Origin: an uncultured Pseudomonadota bacterium
GTDB lineage: Bacteria > Pseudomonadota > Alphaproteobacteria > Rs-D84
Reading direction: 5' to 3'
NCBI GenBank assembly: GCA_937885575.1
Contig: CALABO010000016.1
Location: forward strand, 4,392-68,391
Length of the DNA: 64,000 bases
Shown here: positions 1 through 48,769 of the stretch, piece after piece
How the letters are laid out: each line of letters starts with the position of its first letter
How positions within the stretch are numbered: the first letter of the stretch is position 1
The notes under the pieces: model-generated
Database searches by the model: none
Seen by the model: the letters and a program-made list of their open reading frames with translations, nothing else
Told to the model about the DNA's origin: nothing
Translations under genes and position numbers: made by a program

Positions 1-499
1 TCCAATCACTATCAATATCGGAATTTACATTACGACTTTTGTATTTTGCATCGATATTTTTTCTGACACGTGTCATGTGATGCATAAATATATTTTCCAA
101 TACATAATGCTTTTGTTTTATAAAACTATGAATCATTTGACGGGTGGGATCACACAAGCAAGGTGCCTTCTTATTATTTCCGCACTTTGTCCATTTATTT
201 ATTTTGCGAAAAAATGGCACATAATATTCCCATTTACGTCTGTCGTAACGCATCGTCGGCGATGTGCCATAATTAAGAATATGAACATACGAATGTGTAA
301 TTTTATTCTGTAATATTTGTTTTTTAGCACTTTCTATGGCGAAACCGTCATAAAATTCATCAGAATCCAGAAACATAAAATAATTAACTTTCGCTTTTTT
401 TGCCATATTTAAACCCACAGTACGTTTTAATATTTCCTGTTGTTGTCTGGTTTTATTTGGTACATTTTGATACTCTTGTATTTCGTCTATTAACCCCAT
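1..499 (-). CDS. Glycosyltransferase-like protein, 3'-truncated by the window edge (ATG at 499..497; frame stays open to position 1)
   Basis: Hand translation of the minus strand gives MGLIDEIQEYQNVPNKTRQQQEILKRTVGLNMAKKAKVNYFMFLDSDEFYDGFAIE... with no stop before the window start. The YFMFLDSDEF motif resembles the DxD region of GT2-type transferases. The region is AT-rich (about 30% GC). Confidence 0.45.
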   Translation of the reverse strand, partial: MGLIDEIQEYQNVPNKTRQQQEILKRTVGLNMAKKAKVNYFMFLDSDEFYDGFAIESAKKQILQNKITHSYVHILNYGTSPTMRYDRRKWEYYVPFFRKINKWTKCGNNKKAPCLCDPTRQMIHSFIKQKHYVLENIFMHHMTRVRKNIDAKYKSRNVNSDIDSDW

Positions 500-665
500 A
501 TGTTGATATTGCTTTAATATTTTTATTTCCATAAATCCCTGTATAGGACATGGTTGAATATACCACATTAATATAATCCACATAAGGCCGTATTGATTTT
601 AGGCACGATAACAATAACTCTTCCCCATCATATAAAATTATACTGACACCAAATTTATTTCGCAT
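453..665 (-). pseudogene. Glycosyltransferase family 2 N-terminal fragment (70 aa), probably the frameshifted 5' part of the 1..499 gene
   Basis: VSIILYDGEELLLSCLKSIRPYVDYINVVYS matches the GT2 N-terminal consensus. The frame ends at 453 while a second frame (ATG at 499) continues with the expected downstream GT2 motifs, so the two overlap at 453..509 in different frames. Confidence 0.35.
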
Positions 666-1728
666 TGCATTCTTCCCCTATATCGCACATTAAATTATCA
701 AGATTTTTGTATAAATCATACCTTTCAACAGCAATTTTTCTCAATTGTTCGACATCTTTTAAAACAGCAGGATAACCGTTAATTAAATCGTCTATAATGC
801 TTTTTGCATCAAGATTTTTTATCAAACTATTATCAAAATCTTTATTACTAATAGGTTTTTTGCGCCCGGAATAATTCATTTTTTCCATATCAGCCCAGTT
901 GTCCAAAGTTATATATCCTGGCCCACCAAATCTGTCGTAACAGAAAACAGGTATTCCCAAACAAAGTGCGTATTGTACAGTCCTGCCTATGGATATAATA
1001 ACATCAAAATCTAATAAATCATCGGGCGTTATCTTTTTTGAATTTTCAGATTGTATACCGAAAAAAGTTATATCCAAGCCAGCTGTCAACGCATGTTTGT
1101 GGAAGTCAGAACCCGGTAAAAAAACACCATGATTACTTACCACAGCAACTTTTTTTAGGTTTTTATTGTACGATAATTTTCTATTCTTTATAAATTCTGG
1201 GGCAACAGAATTATTAAATATATCTAATTGATAATTTGATACCTCGGCACTGCGAATTTTGGCGGTTTCCCAAGAATTACAATATATTTTTGTAAATTTA
1301 TCATAATACGCTGGAATCCTTTCCGCATTATCATATGGGGATAATGAAAAATATACTATTTTATCCCCGGTTATACGTCTTGATTTCATAATAGTATCAA
1401 AGACATCACAATGCAAACCCATCATTAAATCAGCACGAATTTTTGGAAGCACCCAACGTTTCTTGATATTGATGACTTTTACATTTTTACTGTTGCACAT
1501 AGATTGCACAACTTTTTTATCTTTATGAAATGTGAAAATATATACTTTGTAGCCCAAATTTGCGAAATACATCGCAAATTCAGATACAACAAATACACTG
1601 CCACTGTAATTGTTCATATATAATGCCGTCAATACAACAGTTTTTTGTTTGCTCATAATACGCGTCCCATAAATTTTATTCATTTTGACATTTTGATAAA
1701 AGCAGTTTCGCAACAGGTATTTTATCAA
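655..1728 (-). CDS. Putative polysaccharide/LPS biosynthesis glycosyltransferase (357 aa)
   Basis: Long ORF in the AT-rich polysaccharide cluster. I cannot assign a specific family from sequence alone. Confidence 0.5.
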   Translation of the reverse strand: MIKYLLRNCFYQNVKMNKIYGTRIMSKQKTVVLTALYMNNYSGSVFVVSEFAMYFANLGYKVYIFTFHKDKKVVQSMCNSKNVKVINIKKRWVLPKIRADLMMGLHCDVFDTIMKSRRITGDKIVYFSLSPYDNAERIPAYYDKFTKIYCNSWETAKIRSAEVSNYQLDIFNNSVAPEFIKNRKLSYNKNLKKVAVVSNHGVFLPGSDFHKHALTAGLDITFFGIQSENSKKITPDDLLDFDVIISIGRTVQYALCLGIPVFCYDRFGGPGYITLDNWADMEKMNYSGRKKPISNKDFDNSLIKNLDAKSIIDDLINGYPAVLKDVEQLRKIAVERYDLYKNLDNLMCDIGEECNAK

Positions 1729-2620
1729 AAATATATGCTTTATATGAAACCGTATCGCGACAGCATTCGATTTTCCTGTACACCGTGATAATGGGTATTG
1801 ACAACAATGTAAACCTATAATACTTTTCGTATTTTTGTTGCGGTTGTGTTTTTATTAAGACTACGTCAGGACATGCTCGTTTTGCACAATTATAAATTTT
1901 ATAAACTAATTCATCAGATGTATACTGTAACAAATACACCAAACTAGGTAACCTATTCAATGCAGGTTTTTTTATAAATGGAATCATATGTTCTAAGATT
2001 GTATTAGGGTACTGATAAACTGTATGCGGATCATTTTTATGATGATTAAAATATGCCGACATCTGAAACCCATTTTGCAATAGTATGCGGGACAATCCGA
2101 CTTCGTACTTTAATATAATTTCATCTTTGGTTTCACAATGTTTGATATTTTGCATAAAATCGTAAATAATTTTAGACGTTGCGACATGTGCCGACAATCC
2201 AATAAACCAAGATTGTATGTGCTTTGCCGTATTCTTATCAAAGAAATCCGTCATTCCTATAAAATCTGCCCCCCGCGATTCTAAATCACGCAACAGGGGT
2301 TCAACATTAAATAACGGCCCATACACAGAATCATTTACTAAATATATCCAATCATATTTACTTAAAATCTTATTATCATAAGCCCACATATATCCACGTT
2401 TATAAGACCCAAAATCATATTCACTATGGCGCGATAATTCATAATGCAATAAATTTTTTACACTTTTCAATTTACTATCATCTGCGACATCGCAATCCAT
2501 GAACAACACAATATCACCCAGTTTTGATATTTCTGTTAAATAGTGCAATAAAGTATCATCCAAAATTCCGTCTTTGTCATATCCAGCAAACAGGAACAGG
2601 CGTTTTGTTTGTTTTTTCAT
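1676..2620 (-). CDS. Polysaccharide biosynthesis protein, rhamnan-synthesis-F/WbsX-like (314 aa)
   Basis: LFLFAGYDKDGILDD... N-terminus and overall layout resemble RgpF-type glycosyltransferases. Overlaps the previous gene by about 50 nt; AT-rich. Confidence 0.45.
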   Translation of the reverse strand: MKKQTKRLFLFAGYDKDGILDDTLLHYLTEISKLGDIVLFMDCDVADDSKLKSVKNLLHYELSRHSEYDFGSYKRGYMWAYDNKILSKYDWIYLVNDSVYGPLFNVEPLLRDLESRGADFIGMTDFFDKNTAKHIQSWFIGLSAHVATSKIIYDFMQNIKHCETKDEIILKYEVGLSRILLQNGFQMSAYFNHHKNDPHTVYQYPNTILEHMIPFIKKPALNRLPSLVYLLQYTSDELVYKIYNCAKRACPDVVLIKTQPQQKYEKYYRFTLLSIPIITVYRKIECCRDTVSYKAYIFDKIPVAKLLLSKCQNE

Positions 2621-2626
2621 ATTTAA

Positions 2627-3502
2627 CTATCTCCACTTAATTTTTATGACCGGTATAAATTCGAATAGATATATCACGTTATTTTTGATTTTTAATAATG
2701 GAATAACACCGAATAACCGCAATCTGAAACGCGTATGTTGGTTTGATTTTAACAATTCGCTATATAACATCGGGTGTTGGTCACGGATCTCCATACATAT
2801 TGCATCATGCATAAGATTCATATGCCGACCACTGGTTACCGATGTTTGTTTTTTAAATGTCCGATATTTAACCAACACGTCTTGGATATTATAAAGATGT
2901 GTAATCTCCATCAATCGCGCCCAAAGACGGTAATCTTCGGCGGGGGTATAGAATGCTTCATATTCAATATCGTTTTCAACCAAAACAGATTTTCGTATCA
3001 TTGCGGCCGTGTGCGCGACACAACAATCTTGTGTTAAAAAGATCCTTATATCTAAATCATATTCCGGATTTCTTAGTATTTTGTCTTCAGAACCAAAATA
3101 TTGTAGCCATCCGCTAACCACACCAATATCCGGATTTGCGTCCAAAAACGCGACTTCTTGTTCCAACCGTGTTGGCAACGAAATATCATCATGATCAAAA
3201 ATCGCAACATATTCACCATGCGCCATTTTTAGCAATTTATTCCGTGATGCAGAAATCCCAATGTTTTTGTCATTTTTAGAATATATAATCCTATCATCTT
3301 TATACGACTTAACAATTTTATCCAATTCTGTATTTTCCGGTGAATCGTTCAAAATCAAAAATTCAAAATTCGTAAAGGTTTGGTTTAAGATACTTTCTAT
3401 GCATTCGCGCAAATGCCGGGGATTCGTATTATAAATTGGCGTTAAAACAGATACTTTTGGTGTTTTCGCAGACATTTTGCTTTTCCTGTGGTTAGATTGC
3501 AC
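2627..3502 (-). CDS. Glycosyltransferase family 2 (291 aa)
   Basis: VSVLTPIYNTNPRHLRECIESILNQTFTNFEFLILNDSPEN ... YVAIFDHDDIS is the classic GT2 N-terminal and DxD signature. An alternative start is MSAKTPK at 3475. Confidence 0.75.
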   Translation of the reverse strand: MQSNHRKSKMSAKTPKVSVLTPIYNTNPRHLRECIESILNQTFTNFEFLILNDSPENTELDKIVKSYKDDRIIYSKNDKNIGISASRNKLLKMAHGEYVAIFDHDDISLPTRLEQEVAFLDANPDIGVVSGWLQYFGSEDKILRNPEYDLDIRIFLTQDCCVAHTAAMIRKSVLVENDIEYEAFYTPAEDYRLWARLMEITHLYNIQDVLVKYRTFKKQTSVTSGRHMNLMHDAICMEIRDQHPMLYSELLKSNQHTRFRLRLFGVIPLLKIKNNVIYLFEFIPVIKIKWR

Positions 3503-3559
3503 AAGCGTCGTTTAAAAAAACCGTACGACTGCTTACCACAATCGCACGGCTATATATCT

Positions 3560-3635
3560 TGGCTCCGGCAGTTGGGCTCGAACCAACGACACCTTGATTA
3601 ACAGTCAAGTGCTCTACCGACTGAGCTATGCCGGA
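3560..3635 (-). tRNA. tRNA-Asn (anticodon GTT)
   Basis: Reverse complement reads tccggcatagctcagtcggtagagcac...gactGTTaatc...ggttcgagcccaactgccggagcca: a cloverleaf with a 7-bp acceptor stem, GTT anticodon and encoded CCA. Confidence 0.85.
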
Positions 3636-3701
3636 ACGACGGGGTATATGCTATACCTGTTTTATTTACAAGTCAAGTGTTTTTATGTGGTGTGGCTAAA
3701 A

Positions 3702-3941
3702 TCACCGCTTGTCCTTTGGCATGAATTTCTCCGCAAATTCCGCAAGGCCGAATCCGGTGGCGTTCAGGACCTTGGCCAAACTGCATGTGGTCGGCCAACG
3801 TTTTTCACCAAAACGATTGATGCGTTTGCTTTTGTTAAATGTTGTCGCGTTCAACCCCGCAAGTTTTGCGAGCCCCGAACATGATAAATTCAGCCATTTC
3901 GCAAGGTTTATGATTGCTTCCCACAACTGATCGTTCGTCAT
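3702..3941 (-). CDS. Phage CI-type repressor-like helix-turn-helix protein (79 aa)
   Basis: LSCSGLAKLAGLNATTFNKSKRINRFGEKRWPTTCSLAKVLNATGFGLAEF resembles the Phage_CI_repr N-terminal HTH domain. Divergent from the endolysin gene. Confidence 0.55.
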   Translation of the reverse strand: MTNDQLWEAIINLAKWLNLSCSGLAKLAGLNATTFNKSKRINRFGEKRWPTTCSLAKVLNATGFGLAEFAEKFMPKDKR

Positions 3942-4170
3942 TTTTTCTCCTTTTATTCTTATGACGAATCGATTATAACATAAATAAGAAAATATTCAAT
4001 CGATTCTATTTTTAAGAGAATATTGTTCTTGTTTTTTGGAATTTATTTATAATTTGATTTTTATTTTGGTTTGTGTTACAATATACGCGTGACGCAAATG
4101 TTACGACTCCTTTATTCCGCGTTTTTGCGCGGGATTTTTTTAACTTTTTTTCAATCCAAAGGATTTTTAT

Positions 4171-5634: not shown

Positions 5635-5723
5635 GGAGCGTTGGCAGAGTGGTAATGCAGCGGATTGCTAATCCGTGACCGTGTTATAGCGGTCCATAGG
5701 TTCGAGTCCTATACGCTCCGCCA
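5635..5723 (+). tRNA. tRNA-Ser (anticodon GCT), type II with long variable arm
   Basis: ggagcgttggcagagtggtaatgcagcggattGCTaatccgt-[variable arm]-ggttcgagtcctatacgctccgcca; CCA encoded. Confidence 0.85.
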
Positions 5724-5746
5724 TTTTTTATGCCCCGCAAGGGGTA

Positions 5747-5900
5747 TTAAAAATGGCGGAAAGATGGTCACGAGAACCGTATAGGTTCGACACGGAGCAG
5801 ATTTGATAAGCATAGCGTAATCAAATCGTTGCGAGTGGAGAGGGGGATCCCCGCCGCGATAGCGGAAGGGGAGTCCAATCCTATACGCTCCGCCATCCGT
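5747..5900 (+). repeat. Degenerate copies of the tRNA-Ser(GCT) T-arm and 3' acceptor end downstream of the tRNA
   Basis: 5771..5800 contains ataggttcga, matching the T-arm. 5872..5898 ggagtccaatcctatacgctccgccat matches tcctatacgctccgccat of the tRNA 3' end (18/18), with a 5-bp duplication. Confidence 0.6.
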
Positions 5901-5991
5901 CTTTGCCGAAGGCAAAGCCGCGATTGGGTGTCGCGCCGTAACCTTGGCGCTTGTGCCACAAAGCCTTAGCGAAGTGGCGAAGGCGGGCTTT

Positions 5992-6538: not shown

Positions 6539-7756
6539 ATGAAAAAAATATTCTTTACTACATTTTGTGTGTTCTTGTTTCATCCAACACTGGCGGATAC
6601 ACTGACCCTTGCTGCGTATGACCCTACATATTATGCAATTATCTACGATTTAAACACAACAGTTGGTCGTGCGGGGATACTTACAGGGGTTTCGGATATT
6701 TACTATTATTATGAACCTTTTTCTGGAAATTTAACGCTTACTCAAACAGAGTGGTTATCTGATGGCCTTGGGGACGAAGTCCCAGCGGATTATGATTCTA
6801 CATTTCATTATACCGGCGTCACATTTAACAATATGTACTATGTTTTGGAAGGTACGATTAGGGATATTGATATAGAAAATTTAAGGAACCAATTTATTGA
6901 ATACCAATTAACATACAGCCAACCTCAAATAAAAACAGTTCATTCTCTTCGGTATATTTTATTACAACAAGACACGAATATCATGAATTTGACGCTTAAC
7001 CGGCTACATAATCACAATGGTAAAAACAAAAATGCATTTGGAATATGGGGACAAACATTATACAATTATTCTAAATATACCGGTGAAACAGGATTTTCTA
7101 GCGGTGCTTTTGGTGTCGCATTCGGGTTTGATAACAAGATAACAAATTCTTTTGTATATGGAATTGGTTATAATTACAATTCAACCAGTATCCAAAACGT
7201 TAGTGCCGGTAATAACATTTTGTTTGCCTATGGACAATATCACCTAAACTATTTATTCATAGATGCAACTGTTGGTTATAATACCGGTGATTATGATATG
7301 GATGATAATGTAAAAGGGAAAACAAACAGTTATTTTGGGGACTTTACTTTAACTTATGAAAATGATTATAACATTATGCCGTCTGTTGGCTTACGGTATA
7401 TACATAATACAATTTCACCAGATAATAAAAACATCAATAAATATGACACAAATTTAATGATGTTTGTTTCTGGGCTTGCATACGATTATCAATCCAGCAA
7501 TGATGGATTACATCTAAAAGCCAGTTTTAGTTTAACTTACGATATCGCAAAATCCAACAAGGATATTATTATAAATATTCCAGAAGTAAACTATACACTC
7601 GGATTAAACGAAACCATATCGCCACTCGGTTTAGAAGCGGGTGTCCTTGTGAATTTACCTATCGGACGGACAAACCTGTCAATTGAATATGATATCGGGG
7701 CGCGTTCAAACTATATCAGTCATACGGGCTCGTTGCGTTTAGCGTATAAATTTTAA
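6539..7756 (+). CDS. Outer-membrane beta-barrel protein (autotransporter beta-domain-like), 405 aa
   Basis: Sec signal peptide (MKKIFFTTFCVFLFHPTLA), alternating amphipathic Tyr/Gly-rich segments, C-terminal ...LRLAYKF ending in Phe as in OMP barrels. GGAGAT RBS. AT-rich. Confidence 0.6.
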   Translation: MKKIFFTTFCVFLFHPTLADTLTLAAYDPTYYAIIYDLNTTVGRAGILTGVSDIYYYYEPFSGNLTLTQTEWLSDGLGDEVPADYDSTFHYTGVTFNNMYYVLEGTIRDIDIENLRNQFIEYQLTYSQPQIKTVHSLRYILLQQDTNIMNLTLNRLHNHNGKNKNAFGIWGQTLYNYSKYTGETGFSSGAFGVAFGFDNKITNSFVYGIGYNYNSTSIQNVSAGNNILFAYGQYHLNYLFIDATVGYNTGDYDMDDNVKGKTNSYFGDFTLTYENDYNIMPSVGLRYIHNTISPDNKNINKYDTNLMMFVSGLAYDYQSSNDGLHLKASFSLTYDIAKSNKDIIINIPEVNYTLGLNETISPLGLEAGVLVNLPIGRTNLSIEYDIGARSNYISHTGSLRLAYKF

Positions 7757-12954: not shown

Positions 12955-13045
12955 GGAGATATGGCAGAGCTGGTTGAATGCGCACGACTCGAAATCGTGT
13001 ATACAGGAAACTGTATCGAGGGTTCGAATCCCCCTATCTCCGCCA
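12955..13045 (+). tRNA. tRNA-Ser (anticodon CGA), type II
   Basis: ggagatatggcagagctggttgaatgcgcacgactCGAaatcgtg-[variable arm]-gggttcgaatccccctatctccgcca. Confidence 0.85.
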
Positions 13046-13212
13046 CAATAAAATCTTAAAAAATTCGCTTTATGCGAATTTTTTTGATTTTATCGGCTAC
13101 GACATGGGATGTGTGCGAATGGCGACGCCACGCAGCACACAATACGAAGATACACAATTAGAAAAATCATAAAAACAGAGTTTTTGTCCCCACGAGTTTT
13201 TATAGATTTTTC

Positions 13213-13252
13213 TTATTGTGTATCGAGGGGGCTATCTCTGCCACAAAAATCA
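13213..13252 (+). repeat. Degenerate copy of the tRNA-Ser(CGA) 3' end (T-loop deleted) about 170 bp downstream
   Basis: gtatcgagggggctatctctgccacaaaaatc versus the tRNA gtatcgagggttcgaatccccctatctccgccacaataaaatc. Confidence 0.55.
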
Positions 13253-13340: not shown

Positions 13341-13667
13341 TTATTGAACGTTTTTAACCCAATCAAACAATCCTTCTTCTTTATGTTCTTGTTTGTATTT
13401 TTCTGTTTTTTTAATTAGCATTCGCATTCTTAGATTATCATATATAACAAAAGGCCATAACACTGGCAATATTACAACTATCAACCATCCCAATAATACT
13501 TCTTTTTTATTTATGAACATAATACTTACTCGTAATGTGATGATTATAATTATACCAGAATAATATATAACAATCAATATATCATCTCTCGCATATCTAA
13601 TACCGTTCTTTTTTTCAACTCCGCCATCCGCTTTCGCTACAACGAAATTGGTTTCTCTGTAATTCAC
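13341..13667 (-). CDS. Small hypothetical membrane protein (108 aa)
   Basis: Two hydrophobic helices; AT-rich. Confidence 0.3.
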   Translation of the reverse strand: MNYRETNFVVAKADGGVEKKNGIRYARDDILIVIYYSGIIIIITLRVSIMFINKKEVLLGWLIVVILPVLWPFVIYDNLRMRMLIKKTEKYKQEHKEEGLFDWVKNVQ

Positions 13668-21150: not shown

Positions 21151-24100
21151 TTACCACATCTTGTATCCCGGTTTACAGGTTCGAACACATTTATTGGTGC
21201 GTTCATCCCAAACCTTGGTTCCGGTTTCATCGGTTTCGGTTTCACAAATCGAGACACATTCGCCATTTTGCAACGCGTACTTTTGCCCTTGGTACATGCA
21301 CGCGGCGATTTCGCATTCGGATACATAACTGCTGACCGCGACATCTTTATTCGGGTCACCATCAACATAACGGTTCGCGCATTCAACACAGGACTTGTAG
21401 TCGGAACTCGGTTCATATCCCGGATCACACTTTGTCACAAAGCATTCCCAAGAAGACGGTCCAACTTGTTCACTTTCGGCACTGCCGTGTGCAACGGTGC
21501 AGGTATCCCGGACACATGCGTTACCGGATTCATGGTACCCATTGGCCTCGTCACATTCAATGACCGTGCAGGGTCCGTATGTTCCGATCGCCGGGTTCCA
21601 AATGCGGGCCGCACTGGTCGCATTCGGGATTGAACATGCACGCGTATTGCTTACGCATTCGCCATGTTCAATATGTTCATCCTGTGCGCAACTGTTCGGA
21701 TCAATAAAGCATTCCTTTTTCGATGTTGCACCCGGCAAAGATGTCTTGCCATCCGGACAATCCTTGCAGGTCAGACCATCGTCACCGTATTGGCCGGCCG
21801 GGCATATCGTGCACGATGCGGTGCAATCGTTGTTAAAGTTGGAATCAGTGCAGGTAAGTTCTGGGTAACCATATCCCAGTTTACAGGTCGTTGGATTCCA
21901 ATTGCAGATATTGCCATTGTTCGACACAAATCCGCAACCAGAATTCACACCGTCACCATTGATTTCGCATTCGCAATCTGTACATGTACCGTTCACTTCG
22001 ACCTGTTTGTTTCCGCACTGCGTGCACGATGCAGTGCAACTTGTGGTATCGTCTGAACAATCCAACGTCGGGTTCACATAACCGGTCTGGCAACTTACCG
22101 GCCCCCATGCACATGTATCGTCATCGGTTGACAATGTTCCGCACGATGTTGTGCCGGTTCCGGCGGTGCAATTACATTGCTGGCACTGATTATTCAACGA
22201 TATCTTATCGGCCGCGCATTCGGTCCAATCTGCGGCAAGTACCGTTGCACCATCTGTTTTATAGGTGTATTCCGTACCAAGGTTTGCGTAACCACTATCA
22301 AACGTTCCCACACCACCAGATTCAACCGCCCATTGGGTCATTATATGACGCGGTTTGCGATAGTGTTCCGCACTCCAATCAAGCGTTGTGAACGGTGCAT
22401 CATATGTCACGGATTGTGTATAATTCTGATTTGGTGTTCCACCGTTCGGTTTATATGTGATACCGTTTTCATTTGGATATGTTTTTGCCACACACTTTTG
22501 TAATGTAGAATTCCATTCATATCCCGTATGACAGGTCACCACGCATTCGCCAGGATTTGGGATATCCAATGTGCAGTGATCTTCCGGCAAGCAATTATTG
22601 CAATATACCGCGCGGAAGTTTTTATCGGTTGTATAATTCCAAGTCACCGTATCACCGGCCGCGTGTATTTGTTGGTCGCCATCAAACTCCCACCCCGCGA
22701 ATGTGGAGTTCTCACGAGAACACCCATAAACCGTAGCATTTGCCTTGATTGTGTACGGTGTCCCATAACCCACAAGTTCACTAACTGGCGGAATGCCCGT
22801 ACCCGTACCACAATTGTAGATTGCATTGGATTGCGAAAGGGTGCAAATCGGTGCACAGTTTGTTCCGTTGCATTCGCATCCACCGTATATATAACCATCG
22901 GGGCAGCTTTCCTCGCTCGCATTGCACGCACATTCGTTGGAATTTGTGGCATATGTCGTGCAACCATCCGCATCGCATGTGCACTGTGCCCATTGTGCCG
23001 ACAGTGTTGTATCGGTTGCGTCATTATAGACATAATTACCCGAAAGTGTCGCGGTCCCGTTTGTGAACGTGCTGCTTGACCCGGATTCAACGTTCCAATG
23101 TGTCATGATATGATTGGTATATGTGAATCGTGTGCCGCCCTCGGTCGTGAATGATTGACCATAGTAAACACCTTGGTTATATGTTTCATTCGTACCGTTG
23201 TTTGACAGGTAATGTATGGTATGTGCACCCGGTACGCATGCATCAGCCGATGAAGAACCCGCCGGCGATGTGTATCCGTTCTGACACGGCACACAAGTAT
23301 TACCCGATTGATATGTGTTCGCCGGACAAATTTCACATTGGCAATTTTCATTAGACACCCAACCATCACCGCATTCATTATAACTTACGACACAGTTAGT
23401 ATCATTGCATACAACATTCGCGTTTCCGTCCTCATTTCCGTAACCCACCAAGCACTGACCAACCGCAGTACAGGTATTGTTCGCTGTGGCACCGGGTGTG
23501 CAAGATGCGGCACCATTACCAGTCGTGCATGTACATGGTATGCATTCACCATTGACGATTACTTCGCCCTCTTGGCATTCGCCACATGTCAATGTACAAT
23601 TCGTGTTACCCGTTCCCGTACATTGCATATTCGGTGAAACATAGCCATCCTGGCATACTGGGTTTGTCCAGTTACAAGTATTGCCGGCGGTAGATAATGT
23701 TCCGCACGATTCCGCGCCAGTGCCAGTCGTGCATTCGCACGATTCCCAATGCGCATCCAACCAGGTATCGCCCGCAGTATTATACTGATACCAATGATTC
23801 AATTCCGGATAAGCACCACCCGATACTGTATCCCATACCGTGATAATGCTGTTAGTTTTGCTAAATATAGTGCCCTGCTTTGTCACAAATCCACTATTAT
23901 ATGTCACATTTTGGATTACAGGTTGATCTGTTACACCAGTTGCTGTATTTACGCCACCGGCTGCTTGGTATGTGATTGTGTATGGATTACCGTTGCCATA
24001 ACAATCTTCGATCGATGTTGAACCCGCAGGCGATGTATAACCTTCTGGGCAACTCTCACATTCGAGACCATTCGGTCCATATGTCCCAGCTGGACACACC

Positions 24101-27100
24101 TGGCACTTTACGGTGCAAGATTGATTGCTACTACCTTCGCAGATAATGTTCGGATAACCGTATCCCAAACCGCATGTCGCCGGTCCCCAGTTACACATAT
24201 TATCACTGATAGACATTGTCCCGCACGATACAGCGCCCGTTGTAGTGTCAGGCGTGCATCTGCAATCCGTACAATCGCCGCTCACTTCAACTTGATTGGC
24301 AGGGCAGATACCACAAGATGCGATGCAACTTGTATTGCCTGTGCCTGTGCAATTCCATGCAGGATTCACAAAGCCGGTCAAGCATGCCACAGGATGCGTC
24401 CATTCGCATGTATTGGAAATGGTTGACAAAGATCCACATGATGTATTTGTCGCCCCTGTGCCAATTGTACAGTTACACTTGACACAATCATTTCCAATTA
24501 ATATTTCATCCGATGCGCACTGAATATTAGTATATTCTGCGGTGAATGTTTGGTCAGATGTATAATTCCATGTGATACGGTCACCAGCCTGGTGCAATTG
24601 ACCATCACCATTGAACCGCCACCCTGCAAAGTTAAATCCGGTCTTTTGACAATTTGCGCCACCTTCATTCTTTACAGTATAATCGGCATCATATTCGGCC
24701 GTATCTGTGGCGGTTACCGGCATACCCGTTCCGTCACCACAATCATAGGTTATATTTGATGTGATCGGATTACATACAGCGGCCGGAGTATACGCCGTTG
24801 GCTGATCCAGTTCGTATCCAGTGTCGCACCAATTTATATAAGCGCATGTATCATTCGTCACAATCGGTGTACACCCAGCAACATGCGGATTTAACGGATT
24901 AATACACTGGCATTGATTCCATTGTGCCTTAATCTTGTGAGTGGATATTCCACTGTACACACCGACATTGTTGTATGTGCACATTACGTTTGTTCCGGCC
25001 GAGTACAAATCATTACCCGTGGCCAATTTCCACCCAAGGAATTGCATAGCATTGTTGTTATGCGTCGGTGCCGCCGCCAAGGTCAGATTGTTTGCCGGAT
25101 GTGTGCCACATGATTCACAGGCCGGAGATGTGCAGCCATTGCCATCGACACAGAATTGGCAACTGCCGTTCTGGTCAATCGGATTCCCGCCGTTTTCGTC
25201 CCAATCGACGGTTATCGTTTCTCCATAACATGATGTTGCGGCCACCCCTGATGTAAAGCCATTATCACAAGATTTACATTCGTTGCCGTCCTGATATGTG
25301 CCGGGCTCGCATTGCCGGCAAGATGCATTACAATTTGTATTGCATTCGCCGGTACATGTCGGCAATTCGTTTGGAACATATCCAGGCATGCAGGTAACGG
25401 TCGGGACACAGGCATTATTCACAACGGACACCGAACATCCCTGGACCCCGGTTCCCGATGTGCATTGGCACGCCACCCAATCGGCCAACAAGGTTGTATC
25501 GTTTTCATTAAGGTAAGTGTATTCCGTCGAAAGTTCCGCCACCCCATCTGGGAATGTATAGGTGGTTGCGTTACTAACCCAACGGCAAAGCACTTCGCCA
25601 CTCTTACTAAACGTGTCGCCACCAAGTGTTGTGAATGTTTCATTCAGTCTCAAACTTTGTGTTCTGGGCTGGGTCGGTGTTCCGCCGTTTGGTTTATATG
25701 TCAACGTGAACCGTGGATCTGGTGACAGGACGCAACTGCAACTGTTTGTGTCCCAAGTATAATCGTTGTTGCAATTGATTGTGGCAACGCAACTGTTCAC
25801 AGTGCAAGAACCATTAGCGATACCGTTTGCGGGGCACCCTTCGCACCAATGGGCATACCATGTCACATCATTATTTATTGGTGTTCCCGGTTGAACCTGT
25901 TGCCCGCCCGTCGCGTCGGTCCACCAACCCACAAAGTTATATGTCACACCACACGCATCACGTGTCGGATCGATCGGCCATTTGTCTGTTCCAACCTGAC
26001 TCGCATTCCAGTGGGCATACCACGTGGCGTCGGTTGTATAGCCCTTGCCATCATCCATACCATCCTGGGTAATATAACTCTTTAGTTGCCCGCCAACCGA
26101 CCGTGCGTCTGTGTACTGGGTGACACCAGATGCCGTTTTATAGTATCCATTGAACGTTAGGTTAACGCCCCTATCCGTGATGGTTGCACCATAGCAATTC
26201 GGATCATCATTATCACAATGATTGAATGTTGCGGTAACAACACAATTCGGCAACTTATCTACCGATAATGGATGGTCGGATATAGTCATCAGGTATTGAT
26301 TTGTCCGCGCAGGATTCAGGTACACACCGGTATTTTCGGTTGTATAGAGCTTTTCCTGGCCTGGTGTTACATCACCCCCGCAATTCGCATCCAATGTGAT
26401 TTCATGGTCAGCCAATTTTGTACACTGAACCCCAACATCGGTGCTTAGGTAGTAATCCGGCGTATAACCAGGTTTGCACATGATTGTAAACGGTTCACAA
26501 TATTGCGTTGACGGAACATCATGCACACATTCATTACTGCCATAATACTGTGCCCCCGATACCGAAGATGTTAATTGCGGATAAACACAGGTAAGAACTC
26601 CCTCCTCATTAGGACAATCCGACACCGGTTGTGTGCACGGGATTTCGACATTGCATGTTTTGTAACAATGTTGTGGTGATGTCGCATTTATGTTGGAATG
26701 GTCGTATCCCGTCGGGCATGTCTTGCAAGAACCGTCAAAATACGATCCATCTGAACATTCTTTATAATGTGCATTGAGCGTTGGATTATCGTCTGTGAAA
26801 ATCCACAAGATCGAATCACCCGGCCAATATGTGTTAGAATTCAAATTGAATTTCCAATTTTCGAATTCATGTGCCCTTGTCGTTTCCGTGGCCGGTTTTG
26901 AACAAGGTATAAAGTTTTCACGCACAGTGTATGATGTATTCTGGTATGCAAGTTGATTGTCGGTCGCACTGCCACCCTGACCATCTTCACTGTTGCAATT
27001 ATATGTCACCGTATATGACTTGCCAGACCAATGTGCACACAATGTACGATCACCGGAAACCGCTATGGTTTGATTACCCATGGACACAAGCGCCCCACCG

Positions 27101-30100
27101 TCGCATGCGTTCCACCAACCGGCAAATGTGTAGCCATCGCGGCTCATGATGTCTTCGCCAGGTAAATCGACACTGCCATTCAGCCATCTTGCCTGCCATG
27201 TCTGGTTGTTTTGCGCAGTAGTACCGATACTCTGACCTGCACCTGTAATGTAACGGTTTATGCCAATTACTGGATCAATCTCTGCACCAGTGGTGTCATA
27301 AAAACCATCAAACACAAAATCAACATTATCCGATAATTGTCCACCATACATGTCATGCCAATTAAACATTGCGCCATTACCATTAAGTGTCACCGTGGCA
27401 TATGTACTTGGCGTCCCAGATTCCAACGGATAATCATTCGGTGTCATCATGTATGTTCGGTTATAATCGCGGTAAACGCCATGATTGAACCACGTATAGA
27501 GTGTCGATGGATTCGCCAATGTTCCATTATCATTATAAAGATTCGAATTCAGCGCGATAGTATATCTGTTGTCACGGCATTCGGTTCCAACAAGGTCATA
27601 ACCGTTGTTACAGATTATGTCATTAGGACAAATTGGTAAACTTTGTTGACCTTGTGGCAAACATGTTGCACCAGGGCGATTGTATTTTATGCCCCATTGT
27701 GGATAATCCGAATGGTTTGGTGCGCAAGATTGCATGCCAACTGGCAATGGGCTTGGGCAACCCGAATCTTGGCAATCATATTCGCAGTTGCCATAACATT
27801 GTTCCGCACCAATTGCATGTGGGTTATCGGTGAAACCGTCTGGGCATGGATAGCATTTGTTACCGTCCCAGTATTCGCCCTGCTCGCATTGACTCCAATC
27901 CGGTTCCCATACTTGGTTATTATCAGTTAACACTGTGGGGTCTGGCAATCTCCATTGCCCGTTACTCACATAGCCCATCTGGACATCATTATACTTATAT
28001 CCTGCAAAAACATACCCTGAACGTCTTGGCAATTGTGAACCGGATAATCTTGTAACATTGAACGGCCCATTTGCAGTATATCCCCATCCATTATCATATT
28101 TTTCATACAAAATTTCTATCCCGGGTTCTGTTGCATCCGTTTGAGCCAAAGTCACATAATACACATTTCCATTATTCCAATCCGGGGTAAAGTCTTCATT
28201 GGCGTAAACATCACTCCATGTTGCCGTATATTCGGTATCACGCGCGGTGAATGTTGTGTTGTGGTTGCCCATCCAGCTAGTAAATGTATAACCCGCGTTT
28301 GAACATGCCGATGTCGGTGGAACCCGAACAGTGCCGCCATTCTGAACAGATTGGGTGTAATTCGGTAACGGATCTTCACCCGCGCCGCACCTGAATGTGA
28401 TTGTAAATGGACCCGTTGGACGGCCACACCGTGCATACCACGTATGGTTATTATCCGTATAATTGGGTTCCTGTTCTACACGGCCATCTGGACGAATCAC
28501 CCTATCACCACCACTTAATGCATCATAGTAGCCCTTGAATTCATATCCCGCGTTCGGTGTTGGCAGTTCATCATCGGTTAACGTCAAATTCGGATCAAAT
28601 GTTCCGGTTGCGGCCCGATTCCAACCAACATTGTATTTTTCATACAATTTTGTTGGTGTGTTATTGGATGGTTGACAGTTATTTCTGTCTGACACTAATT
28701 TTACTTCGTATATCACATCAGACCAATGTGCATACACAGTCATATCATTGTTCACCAAAGAACTTGAATCCACTTGGTTGCCCCCCATGGGTAAATCATA
28801 CCATCCATCAAATACAAAACCCGGGCGTGTTGGCACTGGTAAATCATTCCCAGACGAACTTATCGTCCCCAGTGTCCGCGATTGCCACCGGGCGTGCCAT
28901 GTGGCATCATCGGTATATCCCGTGCCAGCGGCTATACCACTTCCGTTAATATAACCATCGACATCTATATAACGTGGTGAACCATTCACAGATTTCCAGA
29001 AACCTTGGTAATCAAATAGAACATTCGCGTCCATGCTGCCCATGTACGTTTGACCATTCCAAATCAGTGATGCACCTTGACCATTAAGGTTAAATGTCAC
29101 GATTGCATAATTTAGCGGATTTTCGCTAAGCGGGTTCTGGTTCGCCCTCATTTCACCCGTATAATTGGAATACAAATACACCCCACGGTTATGCCAGGTA
29201 TATAAAACTTCTGGATCACTGCTCACCCCATGTATTATATGCGATTCTAATGTGATGGTGTGTTTTTCATCTTCCACACAACTCTGACCATCCTGGGCCG
29301 GAACCCAACCAAGGTCACAGTCCGTAATCATATACGGGCAATTCGGCGTCGGATTAGTGTTCGAAACACAGGTCTGTGTTCCATTGTTGTATTCTTTGCC
29401 ATTATTTTGAACACTTGGATCATTTGGATTGTATACACAATTCGCACCATGAACCGTTGGACATCCATTGGTCAAACAGATTGAACAAATCTTATAACAC
29501 TGATTCACGTTCGTCGCATTCGCATCAGCTAAAGGATACGCGCCACCTGTTGCATCACTGCAACTTTTGCAAACGCCATTATCCCAGTACTGACCGGCCG
29601 CACACGGTCCCCACTGAGCATCCCAGGTTTCATTTGCTGATATACTTGCCGGCAATGCCCAATTTGCACCACTAAAGTTTCCTCTCTGTGCCTGGGTTGT
29701 GCTATCCAACCATCCGTTAAAGTTAGACCCTTGTTTGGTTGGCAAAGAATCACCCGGTATAGATGTAATCTGTGTCGTTAACCCGGCATTCTTGTACCAC
29801 CCTAGGTCAACCGCGTACCATAATTCTTGATATTCGTTTGACGGGAACATTCCGCCGTTCTCGTTCAAATCCACATGATATACCGCCTTGGTATCCGGGA
29901 CAAAAACTTCATCAAAACAATGATTCCATGCAAAATATGAACCGGCATCAAGAAGAATTTCAGGATGTGTGGATCCCTTCCATTGATTGAATGCAACCCC
30001 AGAACACACCGTTGCCGCCGGGGCGGTTAAGTTAGCATCCCCCATATGCACCGTATAAGTATATATGTCGCCACCATTTGCACTGCATCTGAATTTGATG

Positions 30101-33100
30101 GTAAATGTGCCTGGATTATCAATATACTGTGCATACCATTTTTGGTTATTATCAGTAATGGTTGTGGATGGCAGTGGTTGATAACCATCTGAACTCACAT
30201 AACCGTCTGCCTGAATCATTTGTTGCCCGCCACTCCGTCTGTTAAAGTATCCTTTAAATACTTTGCATGTTTCTGATGGGGATGGTAATTCATCAGGATC
30301 CAAGTTCAGAGAAGATGTAAATCTGTTATCGGTCCTGGACCAACCAATTGTATATTTTTCAAACAGTTTGCTGACAAAGTTTGAACCTTCTATACCATTA
30401 TTACTATCCAATGTTACATAGTATGTATTCCATTCGCAAGTGTTGTTTTCCCAATGCTGGTATTCTGGGCAAATTGGGTCTTGTGTCGGATCCACATTAC
30501 ATGTTTGTGGAGTTATCGTGGCATCTGTCATTGGATTAAGACAGGCATTCGGATCATACTCTGGGACATATCCGGTTTGGGCCGCCGGATTACCTTCAAG
30601 ATACCAACATGTAGCACCCGCCGGATACTGTGGTGTTGGACACTGTGCCGGATTTGCCGGATAACCAGCCCACGTACAAGGCACCGGGCAAGACGGACGA
30701 CATTTACCAAGGGATGGGACATATATTTGACCCGCCTCGCATTGACCATAACTTGCCGTGAAAATCGGAGTAATGTTACAATAATTCCATGAATTAATCA
30801 TATAGTTCGAAGTTCCGGGATAATATACCTGGTTATTGCCATTGAATGTCCAACCATTGAATAACTGATCGTTTGATTGACAAGTTATTGTCGTTCCGTT
30901 GGATTCCACATAATATGGTTCGCCGTATGTTGCCTGGGTTCCGGAAAGTGTCCCAGGGGCGGTACTGGAATCGCATCTGTAATAAACATCATACTCTGTC
31001 GCGTTGCAACTAACGTTATTCAACACGCTTGCATCACCGATTGAACCATTGACGGTGAATATACCTCCGTTAGTGGCGCTGTTGTCATGTGTATAACAAG
31101 TGTAATTGTTATTATTACAGCCGGTACACGCTTCGCACTTAAGGGTATATATACATTCTGTTCCATTGCTATTGAGTGCGCCACTTACAAAAGTTGCGTG
31201 CGCATTGTTTGGTAATGTTCTTGCCGGGCATAGTTCAGATGCATTTGGCACGCAAACACCATTTTCCAAGTTATACCCGCTCTCACATCCCCACCATGCA
31301 TAGTAATCCTTGTCACCACAATCCGTGTTGCTTATTACAGGATTTTGCGTACACCCGGCGGTCAATTCCGGATTCGTGCACCATCCATTGAATACCTTGT
31401 GCGAACCGGCTTGCGGCGTTATCGAACAATTGATAGCGAACGCATTACCAAAGGTATAACTTGTCGTTGAACACCCACTGTATATCGCATTACCATTATG
31501 ATATGTGATGCTATAAGTACCAGGTGTCCAATGAGCATACAAATTCGTTGTTGCGCCCGTTGGTGTATACGGCATATTGGCATTTCCGGCCGATACCCCA
31601 TTGTACATATCTGTCCACCAACCGTTAAATGTATAACATTGACGTTGGGCATCAGGTAATGTTATTGAACCATCCTGCCACTGGGCGTGCCAAACAGTTG
31701 AATTACTCTGATTTTGTTGCGCCGCGATGTTACCATTGGTGCTAATATAACCAGTATCAAATATATATTGGCTTCCGCCATATACCGAAGGATAAAAACC
31801 TTGGAAATCGAACGTCGCCGTTAATGTGGCCGTAGAACTAGAATAACCATTCCAGATAACATTACCGCCATTTCCGTTTAGGATTACATCCGCCGATTTT
31901 TCAGGTACGGCATACAACGACTGCTCATCATTCATCAGATACACATAACCATTATCCAAATACGCCCCGCCATTTGGCCCATATTTTGTATAAAGGACTT
32001 CTGGCGAACTGGCGTGACCATTGAAACCATCAATATGACTATTCAAAGTTATCATATAATTGTTCGGAACGCACGCGGTGTTATTACCATTTGGTGTATA
32101 ACCAGGCAAACAATGAAGAACCGTTATCGGGCAATTTTGTTCATAATTTGGCTGACATGTGCCCGTTCCTGGATAATACAAATTACCATTCATGTTCGAA
32201 TTATTTCCAAATTCGCAATAATTGACCCCTTCGGTTTGTGGGCAAACCGGGGTGCAAATCGAACATTGCCTGTAACATTGATATATGCTTGTTGCATTGG
32301 CTTCCCCAAGAGGAAAATCCCCATTCGTTGCCGTGTTACACGTTACACAGACCCCGTTGTTCCAATATTCATTAGGGTTACACTGGCTCCATATCGCACA
32401 CCAATCTTCATCGTTTTGAATCAGTGTTGCAGGTGACACCGACCATATTCCACCGATGTTACGCACACGCGCATCGCCCGCAAGATTGTTGTACCCAACA
32501 AAAGTCCACCCGCTACGTGTTGGCAATTGTTGCGTGGTAAGTTCCGTGATCGGATTTGAAAGGGTTCCGCCAACATTTGTTCTGTACCAGTTAACACCAT
32601 ATTTTTCCCATAATTCTTGAACACCAGAATTACCAAATGTGCCTGTTTGGGTTGAATCGTCGCAAGAATATGCATGCAAATTTACATGATACACGTTGCC
32701 GTCATTCCAATCTGCGATAAATGTTTCACCATGAGTCTGTTCCCACGGATATTGATATGTAGAACTCTGCGCATTAAGTGTGGTGGGGTGATTACCAGTT
32801 GTCGTAGCTTTCCACCGGCTATACGAATACCCAGGGTTGTTCGTGCAAGCCGAATTTGATGGAACAGTTATATTTTCACCATAATGCACGGTTTGTGAAT
32901 CTACTATCGGATTTCCGCCCTCTTCACAGATGAACTTGATAGTGTATGTTTGGTTCGAATCCGGAATACAGTCATTGGCATCGTTATTCCAGATATATCC
33001 AGTGGTACAATTTGGTGTGTAACGACAAGTGCTCGCGGTTATCAGATCGCAATTTTCCGTCTTACGACACTTTGTAATAGATTCCGTAGGTTCGTAGTAC

Positions 33101-36100
33101 CCGCCTTGTGAATTTGACGTAGTATCATAATTACAACTGACCACTAGATTTGAATAATTGGTGCCATTGGGACAAGCCGCACTGTTAGAAGGCACGCCAT
33201 TGGATTGTCCTGGGTAAGTGCAATTCACAGAACATATTGGCTTGCAATCTTGGGGAGTAACACATGAGTTGCTGACAAGAATGTATCCATCATCACAAGA
33301 ATTAACCGTCCAATGTGCGTAAAGGGTTGTATCGTTATAGGCGATATAATCCGTTTCTATACGTGTTCCGGTTTCTCCTGGTTGTGTCCACCAACCGTCA
33401 AATATATATCCTTCACGGGTCGGATCAGATGGGAAGTCATTCCACATTAATGTACCACTATTACCATTCCATTGGGCGTACCATGTGTAATCCGCTGGCA
33501 CCCCATCGTAATTTTTACCGGCGGCTATACCTTGGTTCGTGATGAACCATTGGTTATTGGTTTGTTTGATATATCGATAACCCGGGTCCTCCGAATCATA
33601 GTTTGCGTAAAAACCAAGAAGAGTAAAGTAAGCATTTTCTATCTCACTTGTTGTTACAGGATTAGAGCAATAAGTGTCATTATCACGATCGCAATGATTA
33701 AATGTTACGGTATAGTATTTATTTGGCAAAGATGTCAACGGATTGGTGGTTTCGGTCATTTCGTCTTCACGTTCATAATCGCGATATACACCCGTATCAT
33801 GTATCGTATACAGTTGATTTGAATATTCGCCGTGTGGACCGTTTTGCCCAACCGTGAAATTTTTGCTAAGGATTATTTCATATTGATTCTCAGCGGTACA
33901 TGTCGCGGTACATTCTGTGTTATATGTTCCCGTGCAGTGGAACTGCGGATTTGTATATCCCGTTTTACATTTCACATCTGGGGTGCATTCGTTATTTGTA
34001 ACAACCGTTGCATCGCACGACAATACACCGGTGCCCGAACTACACTGACATTGTTCCCAATGCGCATCCAGGGTCGCCGTTGTATCCCGATAATGTTCGT
34101 AATATTCTTCTAAATAGGCATAATATGTATTGGTCGTTGCATCATAGTACCGTGTAAACGTGTTTGTTCCCCCATCCGCAACGTCCCACCGCGCAAGTCT
34201 GTTTCCGGTCTTGGTATATATCGCGCCCTTGGTGGTGAAGCTTTGATCAAAGGTCAGCGATACCGGTTCATTTGTATTCGGTTGCCCGCCATTTGGTCTG
34301 TATACAAGTGGCAGGTTGCCATCTTCTTCGCAAACAGCACCATTTTGATGATAGTTTGTATCGCACCCCCACCACGCATAATAAGTTTTGTTGCCATAGT
34401 CCGTGGAACTTATGGTTTGGGATGAATCACATGTCGTATTTGATGCATCCGCGCCAGTGCACCAACCCCGGAACACGGCATGGGAACCAGCCTGCGCGCT
34501 CAACGTGCACTCAATGGTTGCGGTCGTTCCGTATTGGTAATTGTCCGGGGTGCAATTGGTGGTATCAACATTAAAGTGCAACGTCCTTGCCGTGTCATCG
34601 TATGTGATATCGTATTCCGTTGCGGTACAGAACGTGCCGGACAATGTTCCACTGGTTGGACCAGTCATGGTAAATGTTTGCGCACCATTGTGATTATAAC
34701 AACCCGGTTCATTATCGACACATAATGCACACACAATTGTGTATTCACACAGATCATTTTCAAAGGTCACAGATGTTATTTGTGCGTGCGGATTGGGGTT
34801 TGTCGGCAATTGCGCCTGGCACAAACCGGACCCAAGGACACATTCGGTCCCTTGGGGGATATAACCATTTGCCGTGTCACATTCATACAGTGCGGTAAAG
34901 GTTGGGTCAGATGAATCGAACGTTGTATATGTCCATGACAGAATTACCCCACCCGTGTAACCAACATAATGGGTGCCTGTATTATTCAATTCCCATTTTG
35001 GTTGACCGTTTTCAAGTGCAAGCACATAACCAGTATTTGGATTACACTCTGCGATTTTTTGTGCCCCACTGTATGCGACTTTGTACGATTGACCGTATGT
35101 TGCGGTATTTTCCATACTATAACCAGAAGTCGACGTTCCGTGATCGCCACAAACATATTTTACACTGTCCCAAGTTTGCGATGTGCAGGTGCTTCCGTTC
35201 CATGTTGTTCCGTTATCGCAATATTGCGGGTACAGGGTACGGTTCGTAATTTGATTTGCCGGGGTCATTCCAGACATAATGTCTGTAGCATTAGTAGAAT
35301 CCAATCCCAGCAGATATTCAACATACCTGGTACCACCGCTCGGTGTATCATAATAACCCTTGAACAACGGGTCGGCGCTGGCGTTGGCACTTGGCTCTGG
35401 CGCAGCATCAGTCGGATAGATTATGAATGTATAGTTTGGTTCATTGCCCGTTCCGGTGTATTGACCCGGCCCCATAATATGACTCCAGATTTTACCGGAA
35501 CTGTTGCTAAGGTAATACGAGGAACTCACATAAGCAGCATTGCGAATACCAACAATGTGACGTGTACCCGCCGCCGTTGTGGGGCTGTCTTTCTTCATAA
35601 ATGTTACCTGTGACGACATCGGCTTAAACGCCATCGCCCCAGAACCGGTCAGCAATTTCGGACAATACGCAACATCGGCGGCGTTTTCACCGCAAACGTC
35701 AAGTTCCGGATTCGTCGCGCGATTCCGCCAATTTCCATAGAATTCTATTTGATTGTGGTTGTTTTCCACAATATCCGCCACACTGAAATCGCCATATGAT
35801 AAATTCGCGGATCGGCATTCCACATCGCTGGTCCCGTTGTCACCGTTACATACCCGGTAACACTGGTCCGCGCCCCAGTTATAGCCCGCGATACTGGTCC
35901 AGCCGCCACCTAACTGTGAACAAGGCACACATGCGTTTGCATTCGGATCCCAGTAATCACCATTCGGACACACCACGCAATCATCTTTGTTTTCGTTCAA
36001 GTGATAACGCTGATCCGTGCATTCCCATTTCGCATAGACATTTTTATCAGCACACGGGGCGGCGTTTGATAATTCTAGTGGTAAATCACAAGTTTCCAAA

Positions 36101-40915: not shown

Positions 40916-41178
40916 TTGCCGTCCCCCCGCTGAAAATTTGTATGTGAGAACGAGCATAAGCGAAGTTCGAACAACTACAAATTTGCGCGCAGGGCTGTAA
41001 GCCGAGCGAAACGCGGGGTCTCGTCGGGGTTGCAGTGAGTGGGACCGCGACTTGCTCGGCGAGATCCCGCATGAAATCACCCACGCCAAACTTCGTTTTG
41101 CGCGGGGCCCAATACTGCGAGATGACAGGAAAAAAGACCACCCCGGCCTTCGGCCACCCCTCCACAGGAGGGGAACTT

Positions 41179-48731: not shown

Positions 48732-48769
48732 TTTTTCACCTTTTTGTTTGTTTTATTAAATGCCGGGTT

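Follow-up and report, generated by a model that had tools for sequence, protein, structure and literature searches.

The 64-kb stretch of DNA analysed here (the window) contains four gene-less insertions, each placed behind a tRNA gene, and at least two of them belong to what is apparently an undescribed family that behaves like a miniature mobile element. We propose, with moderate confidence, that the family consists of miniature (approximately 155–200 bp), gene-less, non-autonomous insertion elements that are specific for tRNA 3′ ends. Their putative mobility is read from comparative patterns among related genomes and metagenome contigs. No description of such elements was found in a full-text literature search.

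Copies of tRNA 3′ ends follow four of the six tRNA genes

The window represents a housekeeping region of an alphaproteobacterium related to the gut 'Candidatus Enterousia', and its prfB gene is 75–86% identical to prfB of 25 'Candidatus Enterousia'-type MAGs. Using ARAGORN and Rfam, we found six tRNA genes and a two-piece tmRNA (Table 1). The 39 ORFs that were scanned are either ordinary genes (prfB, Obg, Lon, RNase E/G, RecG, Mla, AccA, glycosyltransferases) or without a Pfam match, and no integrase, transposase or reverse transcriptase is among them. A single ORF for a giant protein of 6526 aa takes up approximately 30% of the window. The first 4,000 nt (positions 1–4000) are low in GC (31–37% versus about 45%), and there rhamnan-synthesis and family-2 glycosyltransferase genes adjoin tRNA-Asn, which itself has no element. 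This segment showed no connection with the tRNA-tail elements, and the tie that the initial annotation drew from tRNA loci to the AT-rich glycosyltransferase genes and to the GC-rich block beside tRNA-Met gains no support from these data.

The last 40 nt of each tRNA gene were aligned locally, in direct and inverted sense, to the 350 nt downstream of every tRNA gene, with non-self tRNA pairs and upstream regions as controls. Copies of the gene's own tail were found 145–185 nt downstream of tRNA-Ser(GCT), tRNA-Ser(CGA), tRNA-Arg(CCG) and tRNA-His, with self-match scores of 19–34 versus 10–21 for the non-self and upstream controls. The initial annotation had reported at least four tRNA genes followed by copies of their own 3′ ends, which holds for these four; its coordinates are correct to within a few bases, except that the Ser(GCT) copy matches at 17 of 17 positions rather than 18 of 18. 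A weaker case that it listed at tRNA-Met fell away: no 3′-end copy is present there, and the self score of 19, like that of 10 for tRNA-Asn, is at background level. A check set beforehand, whether the matches are better than chance, came out in their favour, as a 17-mer match in 350 nt is expected approximately 2e-8 times by our own arithmetic and the comparison of self with non-self alignment scores rules out chance as the source of the copies.

The four sites share one layout, approximately 160–200 bp long, gene-less and rich in hairpins. A terminator-like hairpin directly follows the CCA of the tRNA. After it stands a segment that begins with TGG and repeats, in inverted and slightly degenerate form, the last 26–30 nt of the tRNA (the 3′ strand of the acceptor and the T arm, about tRNA positions 49–76). 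The T-stem 5′ strand and the first part of the T loop (..GGTTCGA) are then copied in direct sense. Approximately 80 nt of hairpins come next, which in canonical members hold a core with two covarying hairpins, and the layout ends in a direct copy of the last 14–20 nt of the tRNA. One unit of approximately 155–200 bp therefore comprises the terminator-like hairpin, a hairpin-rich body of approximately 110–150 nt, which in most lineages includes a small variable hairpin, and the last 14–20 nt of the target tRNA. There is no ORF and no integrase gene inside these units. The terminator module occupies this position throughout the family and recurs in every unit of tandem arrays, and the direct T-arm segment is tRNA-specific in all lineages. 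Taken together, live tail, terminator and inverted copy make up a single large quasi-palindrome whose centre is the terminator loop. A candidate promoter inside the terminator module was unconvincing, its hexamer spacing being variable, and no conserved promoter was seen for the element body. Of this anatomy, the initial annotation had seen the tail copies; it had not recognised that an inverted copy is general, that the element brings its own terminator, or that a core is shared.

Table 1. Positions of tRNA genes, elements and neighbouring features in the window.
Feature	Position	Strand	Basis or remarks
tRNA-Asn	3560–3635	−	ARAGORN and Rfam
tRNA-Ser(GCT), target of E1	5635–5723	+	ARAGORN; Rfam tRNA 60.3 bits
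E1 terminator-like hairpin	5724–5753	+	ttttttATGCCCCgcaaGGGGTATtaaaaa; from sequence
E1 inverted degenerate tail copy	5754–5779	+	Starts TGGCGGA, the complement of TCCGCCA; 5′ strand of closing helix
E1 T-stem 5′ strand and T-loop start, direct (tATAGGTTCGA)	5780–5790	+	ATAGGTTCGA at 5781–5790, 10/10 with tRNA
E1 core	5783–5884	+	GGTTCGACA..AGCAG, P1, CGTTGCGAGTG.., P2, ..GAGTC; covariance model R1 58.7 bits, E 1.8e-12
E1 distal copy of last 17 nt of tRNA-Ser(GCT)	5879–5895	+	17/17; direct score 34
Trailer hairpin motif	5896–5930	+	
tRNA-Ser(CGA), target of E2	12955–13045	+	ARAGORN and Rfam
E2, divergent subtype	13046–13243	+	Terminator hairpin, motif GCCACGCAG, AATACGA, AT-rich hairpin, distal tail copy
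E2 long AT-rich hairpin	~13149–13225		
E2 distal copy	13220–13243		Two matching blocks by eye
Giant-protein ORF	21151–40731	−	6526 aa
Core relic	40926–41011	+	GTTCGAACAAC..TGCGCGCAG-hairpin-GAGCGAA; R1 17.4 bits, E 0.028, weak
GC-rich short palindromes	41130–41200	−	
Trailer hairpin motif	41269–41246	−	
tRNA-Met	41270–41346	−	ARAGORN and Rfam
PIF1-like helicase gene	42815–44086	+	
tmRNA gene	48759–49115	−	Two-piece (permuted)
E3	52654–52815	−	Terminator 52815–52774, inverted tail copy 52773–52749 (score 27, about 52769–52748), T-arm piece and degenerate core 52747–52672, distal copy 52670–52654 (direct score 19)
tRNA-Arg(CCG), target of E3	52816–52892	−	ARAGORN and Rfam
tRNA-His, target of E4	58358–58434	+	ARAGORN and Rfam
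E4	58435–58617	+	Terminator 58435–58476, inverted T-arm copy 58491–58503 (13/13; inverted score 30, 58491–58505), nested long hairpin, distal copy 58601–58615 (15/15; direct score 30)

The four insertions differ in how closely they fit the family

We define the family by a canonical core flanked on one side by a T-arm piece and on the other by a tail copy, both of the upstream tRNA. This arrangement is found in E1, behind tRNA-Ser(GCT), which on its sequence is a canonical member. Its minimum-free-energy fold is a four-way junction closed by UGGCGGA/UCCGCCA (z = −4.99), and beyond its distal copy stands a trailer hairpin of the native type, TCCGTCTTTGC..GCAAAG. The E1 core closely resembles those of the elements behind tRNA-Arg in relative L002 and tRNA-Ser(CGA) in relative L011 and is nearly the same in the P1 region, which points to one core family behind different tRNAs, with ends tailored to each.

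E2, behind tRNA-Ser(CGA), was not picked up by the covariance model R1 and matches the family core only in part; its architecture and partial motifs suggest that it belongs to the family. Its fold has a z of −5.28, and in its distal copy the T loop is missing, the first of the two blocks alone scoring 22. An orthologue of E2 lies behind tRNA-Ser(CGA) in L018, and an AT-rich hairpin module of the E2 type is appended to a canonical core in L126.

E3, behind tRNA-Arg(CCG), is weak in R1 (12 bits, E 0.59) and aligns with the Arg elements of L002, L004, L007, L011, L017 and L025. The live tRNA-Arg(CCG) has the discriminator base A73, whereas the distal copy 150 nt downstream and all 23 relatives have G73. 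An A73 in the live gene fits a tail supplied by the element, but ordinary mutation could account for it. The distal copy is also nearer to another tRNA-Arg allele (cccgct type) than the live gene is, a resemblance not accounted for by a simple model in which the original tail was displaced. E4, behind tRNA-His, gave no R1 match and the canonical core is absent from it; its putative membership of the family is therefore one of architecture.

A weak core relic lies downstream of tRNA-Met in the opposite orientation to that gene, in a region that also holds a PIF1-like helicase gene two genes from tRNA-Met. Two further kinds of short repeat were seen near tRNA genes. The conserved hairpin motif YCCGTCTTTGC-N4-GCAAAG(CCGCGRTTGG) directly abuts the CCA of native tRNA tails, being present after tRNA-Met, after the distal Ser-GCT copy and after distal copies in relatives (also L018 11910–11890 on the minus strand, L089 648–667 and L114 241–261), and could represent another type of tRNA-trailer element or serve as a processing signal. 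GC-rich short palindromes, CCCCTCC..GGAGGGGTGG and GGCCGAAGGCC, lie near tRNA flanks in the window, in L017 (~13540–13600) and in L103 (~1150–1400), and may be another small repeat family.

One core is found behind at least 16 tRNA types

Comparison was extended to 25 relatives fetched through prfB (55 further tRNA genes in total). Among them, the element arrangement was found behind tRNA-Arg(CCG) in L002, L004, L007, L011, L017 and L025, behind tRNA-Ser(CGA) in L011 and L018, and behind tRNA-Ser(GGA) in L020, and the family core was present in 7 Enterousia-type genomes. The aligned core reads GGTTCGACAAC-N-AGTAG, hairpin P1, CGTNACGNNTGCCNCGCAG, hairpin P2, GAGNGAAT.

A scan of metagenome contigs with a 26-base core pattern gave 70 matches in 64 loci. 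In 50 of the 70 the core lies 67–97 nt behind a tRNA gene on the same strand, and 13 tRNA types are represented (Gln, Arg-CCG, Arg-ACG, Gly, Pro-CGG, Pro-GGG, Ser-CGA, Ser-GGA, Ser-TGA, Met, Lys-CTT, Lys-TTT and Val). The range of targets is extended by Ser-GCT and His in the window and by Ser-GGA in L020; at least 16 tRNA types are used. The remaining matches are mostly at contig edges or in second units of arrays; one, in L135, looks like chance and lies in eukaryotic DNA. At most sites with an adjacent tRNA, the sequence after the core is that tRNA's last 14–20 nt. Identical P1 variants are found behind different tRNAs, and several P1 variants can follow a single tRNA type, which indicates that the core and the tRNA-specific ends recombine as modules. 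Shared P1 variants also suggest recent common ancestry of cores across different tRNA loci within a genome.

The body has a covarying fold

Helices P1 and P2, together with the flanking CAAC/GUUG, were tested on 48 distinct cores. Paired cells made up 90.6% versus 74.6% in shuffled alignments and at most 44% in slid controls, and double changes affected 13 pairs and 153 cells, a level reached by none of 500 shuffles. The junction pair between GCC-N-CGCAG and GAG-N-GAAT was C:G in 31 cases, G:C in 10 and A:U in 6. The CAAC/GUUG around P1 is conserved, with no compensatory changes in the 48 cores.

The closing helix also looks selected, judging from two cases. In L018 it is a perfect 15 bp, though its 3′ strand has diverged from the tRNA. 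Where a lineage has GAATAC ahead of a tail copy of 14 nt, the inverted segment is complementary to the AC of the element, not to the CC of the tRNA.

A search of the whole window against Rfam 15 at the gathering threshold placed the elements in no family, including tRNA, tmRNA, YrlA and ribozymes, and E1 and one L011 element searched at E ≤ 10 gave terminator-like or chance matches only. Kinship with tmRNA was considered, as tmRNA GTTTCGACAGACG resembles the core GGTTCGACAAC; nothing else aligns, and we therefore treat the likeness as coincidence. The tmRNA gene of the window is of the alphaproteobacterial two-piece kind; its coding piece starts GGGGGTGTCACAGTTTCGACAGACG, superficially like the core GGTTCGACAAC, and the tag is AANDNVRLAMAA-like in relatives. 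A short ORF, GCG TTC GAC AAC GAG TAG, was dropped because it is not conserved.

A tRNA-Arg locus is filled in some relatives and empty in others

Between prfB and a lipoprotein gene, the tRNA-Arg locus carries an element in the window, L002, L004, L011, L017 and L025, and is empty in L008, L012, L014, L022 and L023; in all, 17 tRNA-Arg loci of relatives have no element. In L014 the empty locus reads CCA|TTTTATAGGAAACGACATG, and this flank matches the one beyond the distal copy in L002. The order at the empty locus is tRNA-CCA and flank, and that at the filled locus is tRNA-CCA, terminator, body, tail copy and the same flank. The trailer TCCGTCTTTGC..GCAAAG behaves in a parallel way within the window, standing directly after tRNA-Met but after the distal copy at Ser-GCT. 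Both boundaries of the element carry a direct repeat of the tRNA 3′ end, the tRNA gene is intact, and relatives have the empty site with matching flanks. The suggestion in the initial annotation that the copies are direct repeats of the attL/attR type, left by insertion into the tRNA 3′ end, is borne out by this locus.

Units repeated in tandem were found in L011, L025, L105/L107, L122, L124 and L130. The arrays of L097 and L144 combine different core subtypes, most readily accounted for by separate insertions at a single site. At some loci, such as L011, the repeated segment takes in the terminator, and insertion could then equally be described as occurring after the terminator. Every genome compared was assembled from metagenome data, and such assembly can go wrong at tandem repeats of 170 bp; the same arrays were seen again in independent samples (L011, L088, L115, L137). 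Decay is apparent in a deletion relic at the tRNA-Ser(CGA) of L017 and in L139, where the T arm of a truncated tRNA-Met runs straight into a core.

No recurrent enzyme gene accompanies the elements

No integrase, reverse transcriptase or transposase was found within the elements or beside them, and among 475 ORFs within 3 kb of elements there was no recurrent protein family. All-against-all clustering returned syntenic housekeeping genes and spurious ORFs that run across the element, and a cis-encoded enzyme was accordingly rejected. In L093, an 81-aa gene with a GIY-YIG nuclease domain (6864–7109, plus strand; Pfam E 1.1e-14) lies between tRNA-Gln and a broken element array; it does not recur at other element sites. 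A phage origin was likewise rejected, as the core pattern matched one terminase coding sequence in 2.9 million viral contigs, six times, by chance.

Comparison with known systems

Tandem arrays and directly repeated tRNA 3′ ends are well-established marks of tyrosine-integrase elements, and Williams is said to have distinguished, in 2002, T-loop and 3′-end sublocations for integration at tRNA genes. Islands and prophages at tRNA and tmRNA genes (with tyrosine integrases, for example of the P4 type) resemble the elements described here in inserting at the tRNA 3′ end with a replacement tail that keeps the gene intact, in carrying the tail repeat at the far end, in tandem accretion and in having filled and empty loci among relatives. 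Unlike these islands and prophages, which measure kilobases, the elements are approximately 170 bp long and have neither an integrase nor any other gene; a single sequence family uses at least 16 tRNAs, has an inverted tail copy and a covarying hairpin core, and in some lineages is limited to a repeat of 14 nt of non-conserved acceptor sequence. CIMEs are att-flanked, lack recombination and transfer genes, and are moved in trans by a related ICE (PMC5704250). The elements are similarly non-autonomous, bordered by att-like repeats and found in tandem with other elements at one site. CIMEs, however, measure kilobases and derive by deletion from a known ICE whose integrase is also known, whereas the elements have no known parent and a conserved, structured body.

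Integron attC sites and the CTX phage attP(+) hairpin are recombination sites that act as folded single strands. They share with the elements imperfect hairpins of 60–140 nt, structure conserved over sequence, covarying stems, arrays and the lack of a strand-specific G·U signature. The elements differ from them in having no intI or dif context, in that their paired arms are copies of tRNA tails, and in that the target is a tRNA gene; the integron core boxes R″/R′ (RYYYAAC/GTTRRRY) do not occur in the core alignment, and no integrase is nearby. MITEs, REP/BIME and the RIME of rhizobia are also non-coding, 100–200 bp long, intergenic, rich in hairpins and present in many copies per genome. Those repeats have fixed terminal inverted repeats, short or no target duplications and no tRNA specificity, whereas the ends of the elements are re-tailored for each target tRNA; as the ends differ per tRNA and the flanking repeat of 14–20 nt (up to about 60 nt with the terminator) is the tRNA tail, the elements do not qualify as MITEs.

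Two further likenesses concern RNA. The primer-binding sites of LTR elements and retroviruses are also segments starting with TGG that are complementary to the last 18–28 nt of a specific tRNA, and tRNA-like RNAs (the tRNA-like domain of tmRNA, viral TLS, YrlA) also have an acceptor and T-stem helix ending in CCA. Unlike in these systems, no reverse transcriptase is nearby and the CCA end is paired, not free; ARAGORN and Rfam recognise no tRNA, tmRNA or YrlA fold in the element.

A proposed mechanism and its alternatives

Under the preferred explanation, recombination within the terminal 14–20 nt of a tRNA gene would insert the element, which would then supply a working tRNA tail and a new terminator while the original tail is displaced approximately 150–185 bp downstream. 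Since the repeat is reduced in some lineages to 14 nt of non-conserved acceptor sequence and at least 16 tRNAs are used, it is probably the element's own tRNA-matching segments, through homology or base pairing, that select the target, and not one sequence-specific protein. The enzymes would act in trans. The inverted copy would pair with the distal tail copy and close the four-way-junction fold of the body, and this fold may be under selection, as single-stranded DNA during recombination or as RNA. Counting against this explanation, a homology of 14–20 bp is short for recombination of the RecA type, a double-stranded circle of 170 bp would be strained, and both E2 (Ser-CGA) and E4 (His) lack the canonical core.

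A more specific version, which we put forward tentatively, is that the elements constitute a new class of micro-mobile element of approximately 170 nt, without genes and aimed at the 3′ tails of many tRNAs. Here the target would be encoded in the tRNA-identical and tRNA-complementary segments, insertion would proceed through a folded single-stranded DNA or RNA intermediate (directed by homology or a guide, or primed from the tRNA tail) with host or unlinked enzymes, and the four-way-junction body would be the recognition module.

The body might instead be primarily an expressed small RNA, for example one processed from tRNA read-through, whose closing helix mimics the acceptor/T-stem stack and ends in CCA, with a role in tRNA biology (processing, decoy or regulation) and only secondary spread. 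We consider this unlikely as the primary explanation, although it may be compatible with mobility and need not exclude the insertion-element explanation. The strong covariation of P1 and P2, the conserved unpaired junctions GACAACNAGUAG, CGUNACGGUUGCC and GAGNGAAU, typical of functional RNAs, the repeated prediction of a four-way junction closed by the tRNA-derived helix in minimum-free-energy folds, and the presence of an element behind four of the six window tRNAs are all in keeping with an RNA. However, a strong terminator-like hairpin stands between the body and the tRNA, with no conserved promoter seen, and there is no sign of an RNA-specific strand: mismatches showed no excess of G·U over A·C (17 versus 29), and folding energies of the plus and minus strands did not differ (p = 0.26). 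There is also no Rfam match, and the element is missing from most orthologous tRNA loci in relatives, from which it appears to be dispensable.

It is improbable, in our estimation, that the copies are passive scars, formed when a prophage or island integrated at a tRNA gene and lost its interior, leaving attL and attR approximately 150 bp apart. The tRNA 3′-end repeats and tandem arrays would be expected from a tyrosine integrase, and decay is evident in some copies (the relic at the Ser-CGA gene of L017, L139 and the core relic of the window), but independent deletions would not leave the same body of 110–150 nt with compensatory changes behind at least 16 tRNAs. None of the 70 metagenome matches has cargo or an integrase between the terminator and the core, and the viral contigs gave only the chance matches to a terminase gene. 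The initial annotation had left two options, scars of repeated integration and decay or tiny att-flanked non-coding elements; the covarying core, the uniform size, the number of tRNA types and the lack of an integrase favour the second and speak against the first.

Purely local origin without mobility, in which fold-back or template-switch replication at the terminator hairpin gives palindromes of tail, terminator and inverted tail, and slippage gives direct copies and tandem units, would suit the quasi-palindrome and the identical tandem units that occur, yet we regard it as highly improbable, as it leaves unexplained a shared non-tRNA core at many unrelated tRNA loci in different species, arrays of different core subtypes, and filled and empty loci with clean boundaries. 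Passive scars and local fold-back duplication alike fit poorly with a shared, covarying core.

Implications

Should the insertion-element explanation be confirmed, the elements would be, by a wide margin, the smallest known that insert at tRNA genes, and the first in which a single structured module is known to serve insertion at many tRNA species. They would also provide a natural example of target specificity that resides in a short element-borne sequence rather than in a dedicated protein, and, if the new-class version is true, a programmable, self-restoring insertion system aimed at essential genes. For annotation, the elements are a recurrent source of pseudo-tRNA fragments and spurious ORFs. 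As elements that exchange the working tail and terminator of an essential gene for their own, they could change the sequence of the tRNA, as the derived discriminator base of the tRNA-Arg in the window may illustrate, and they would explain the build-up of partial tRNA tails behind tRNA genes in these gut Alphaproteobacteria.
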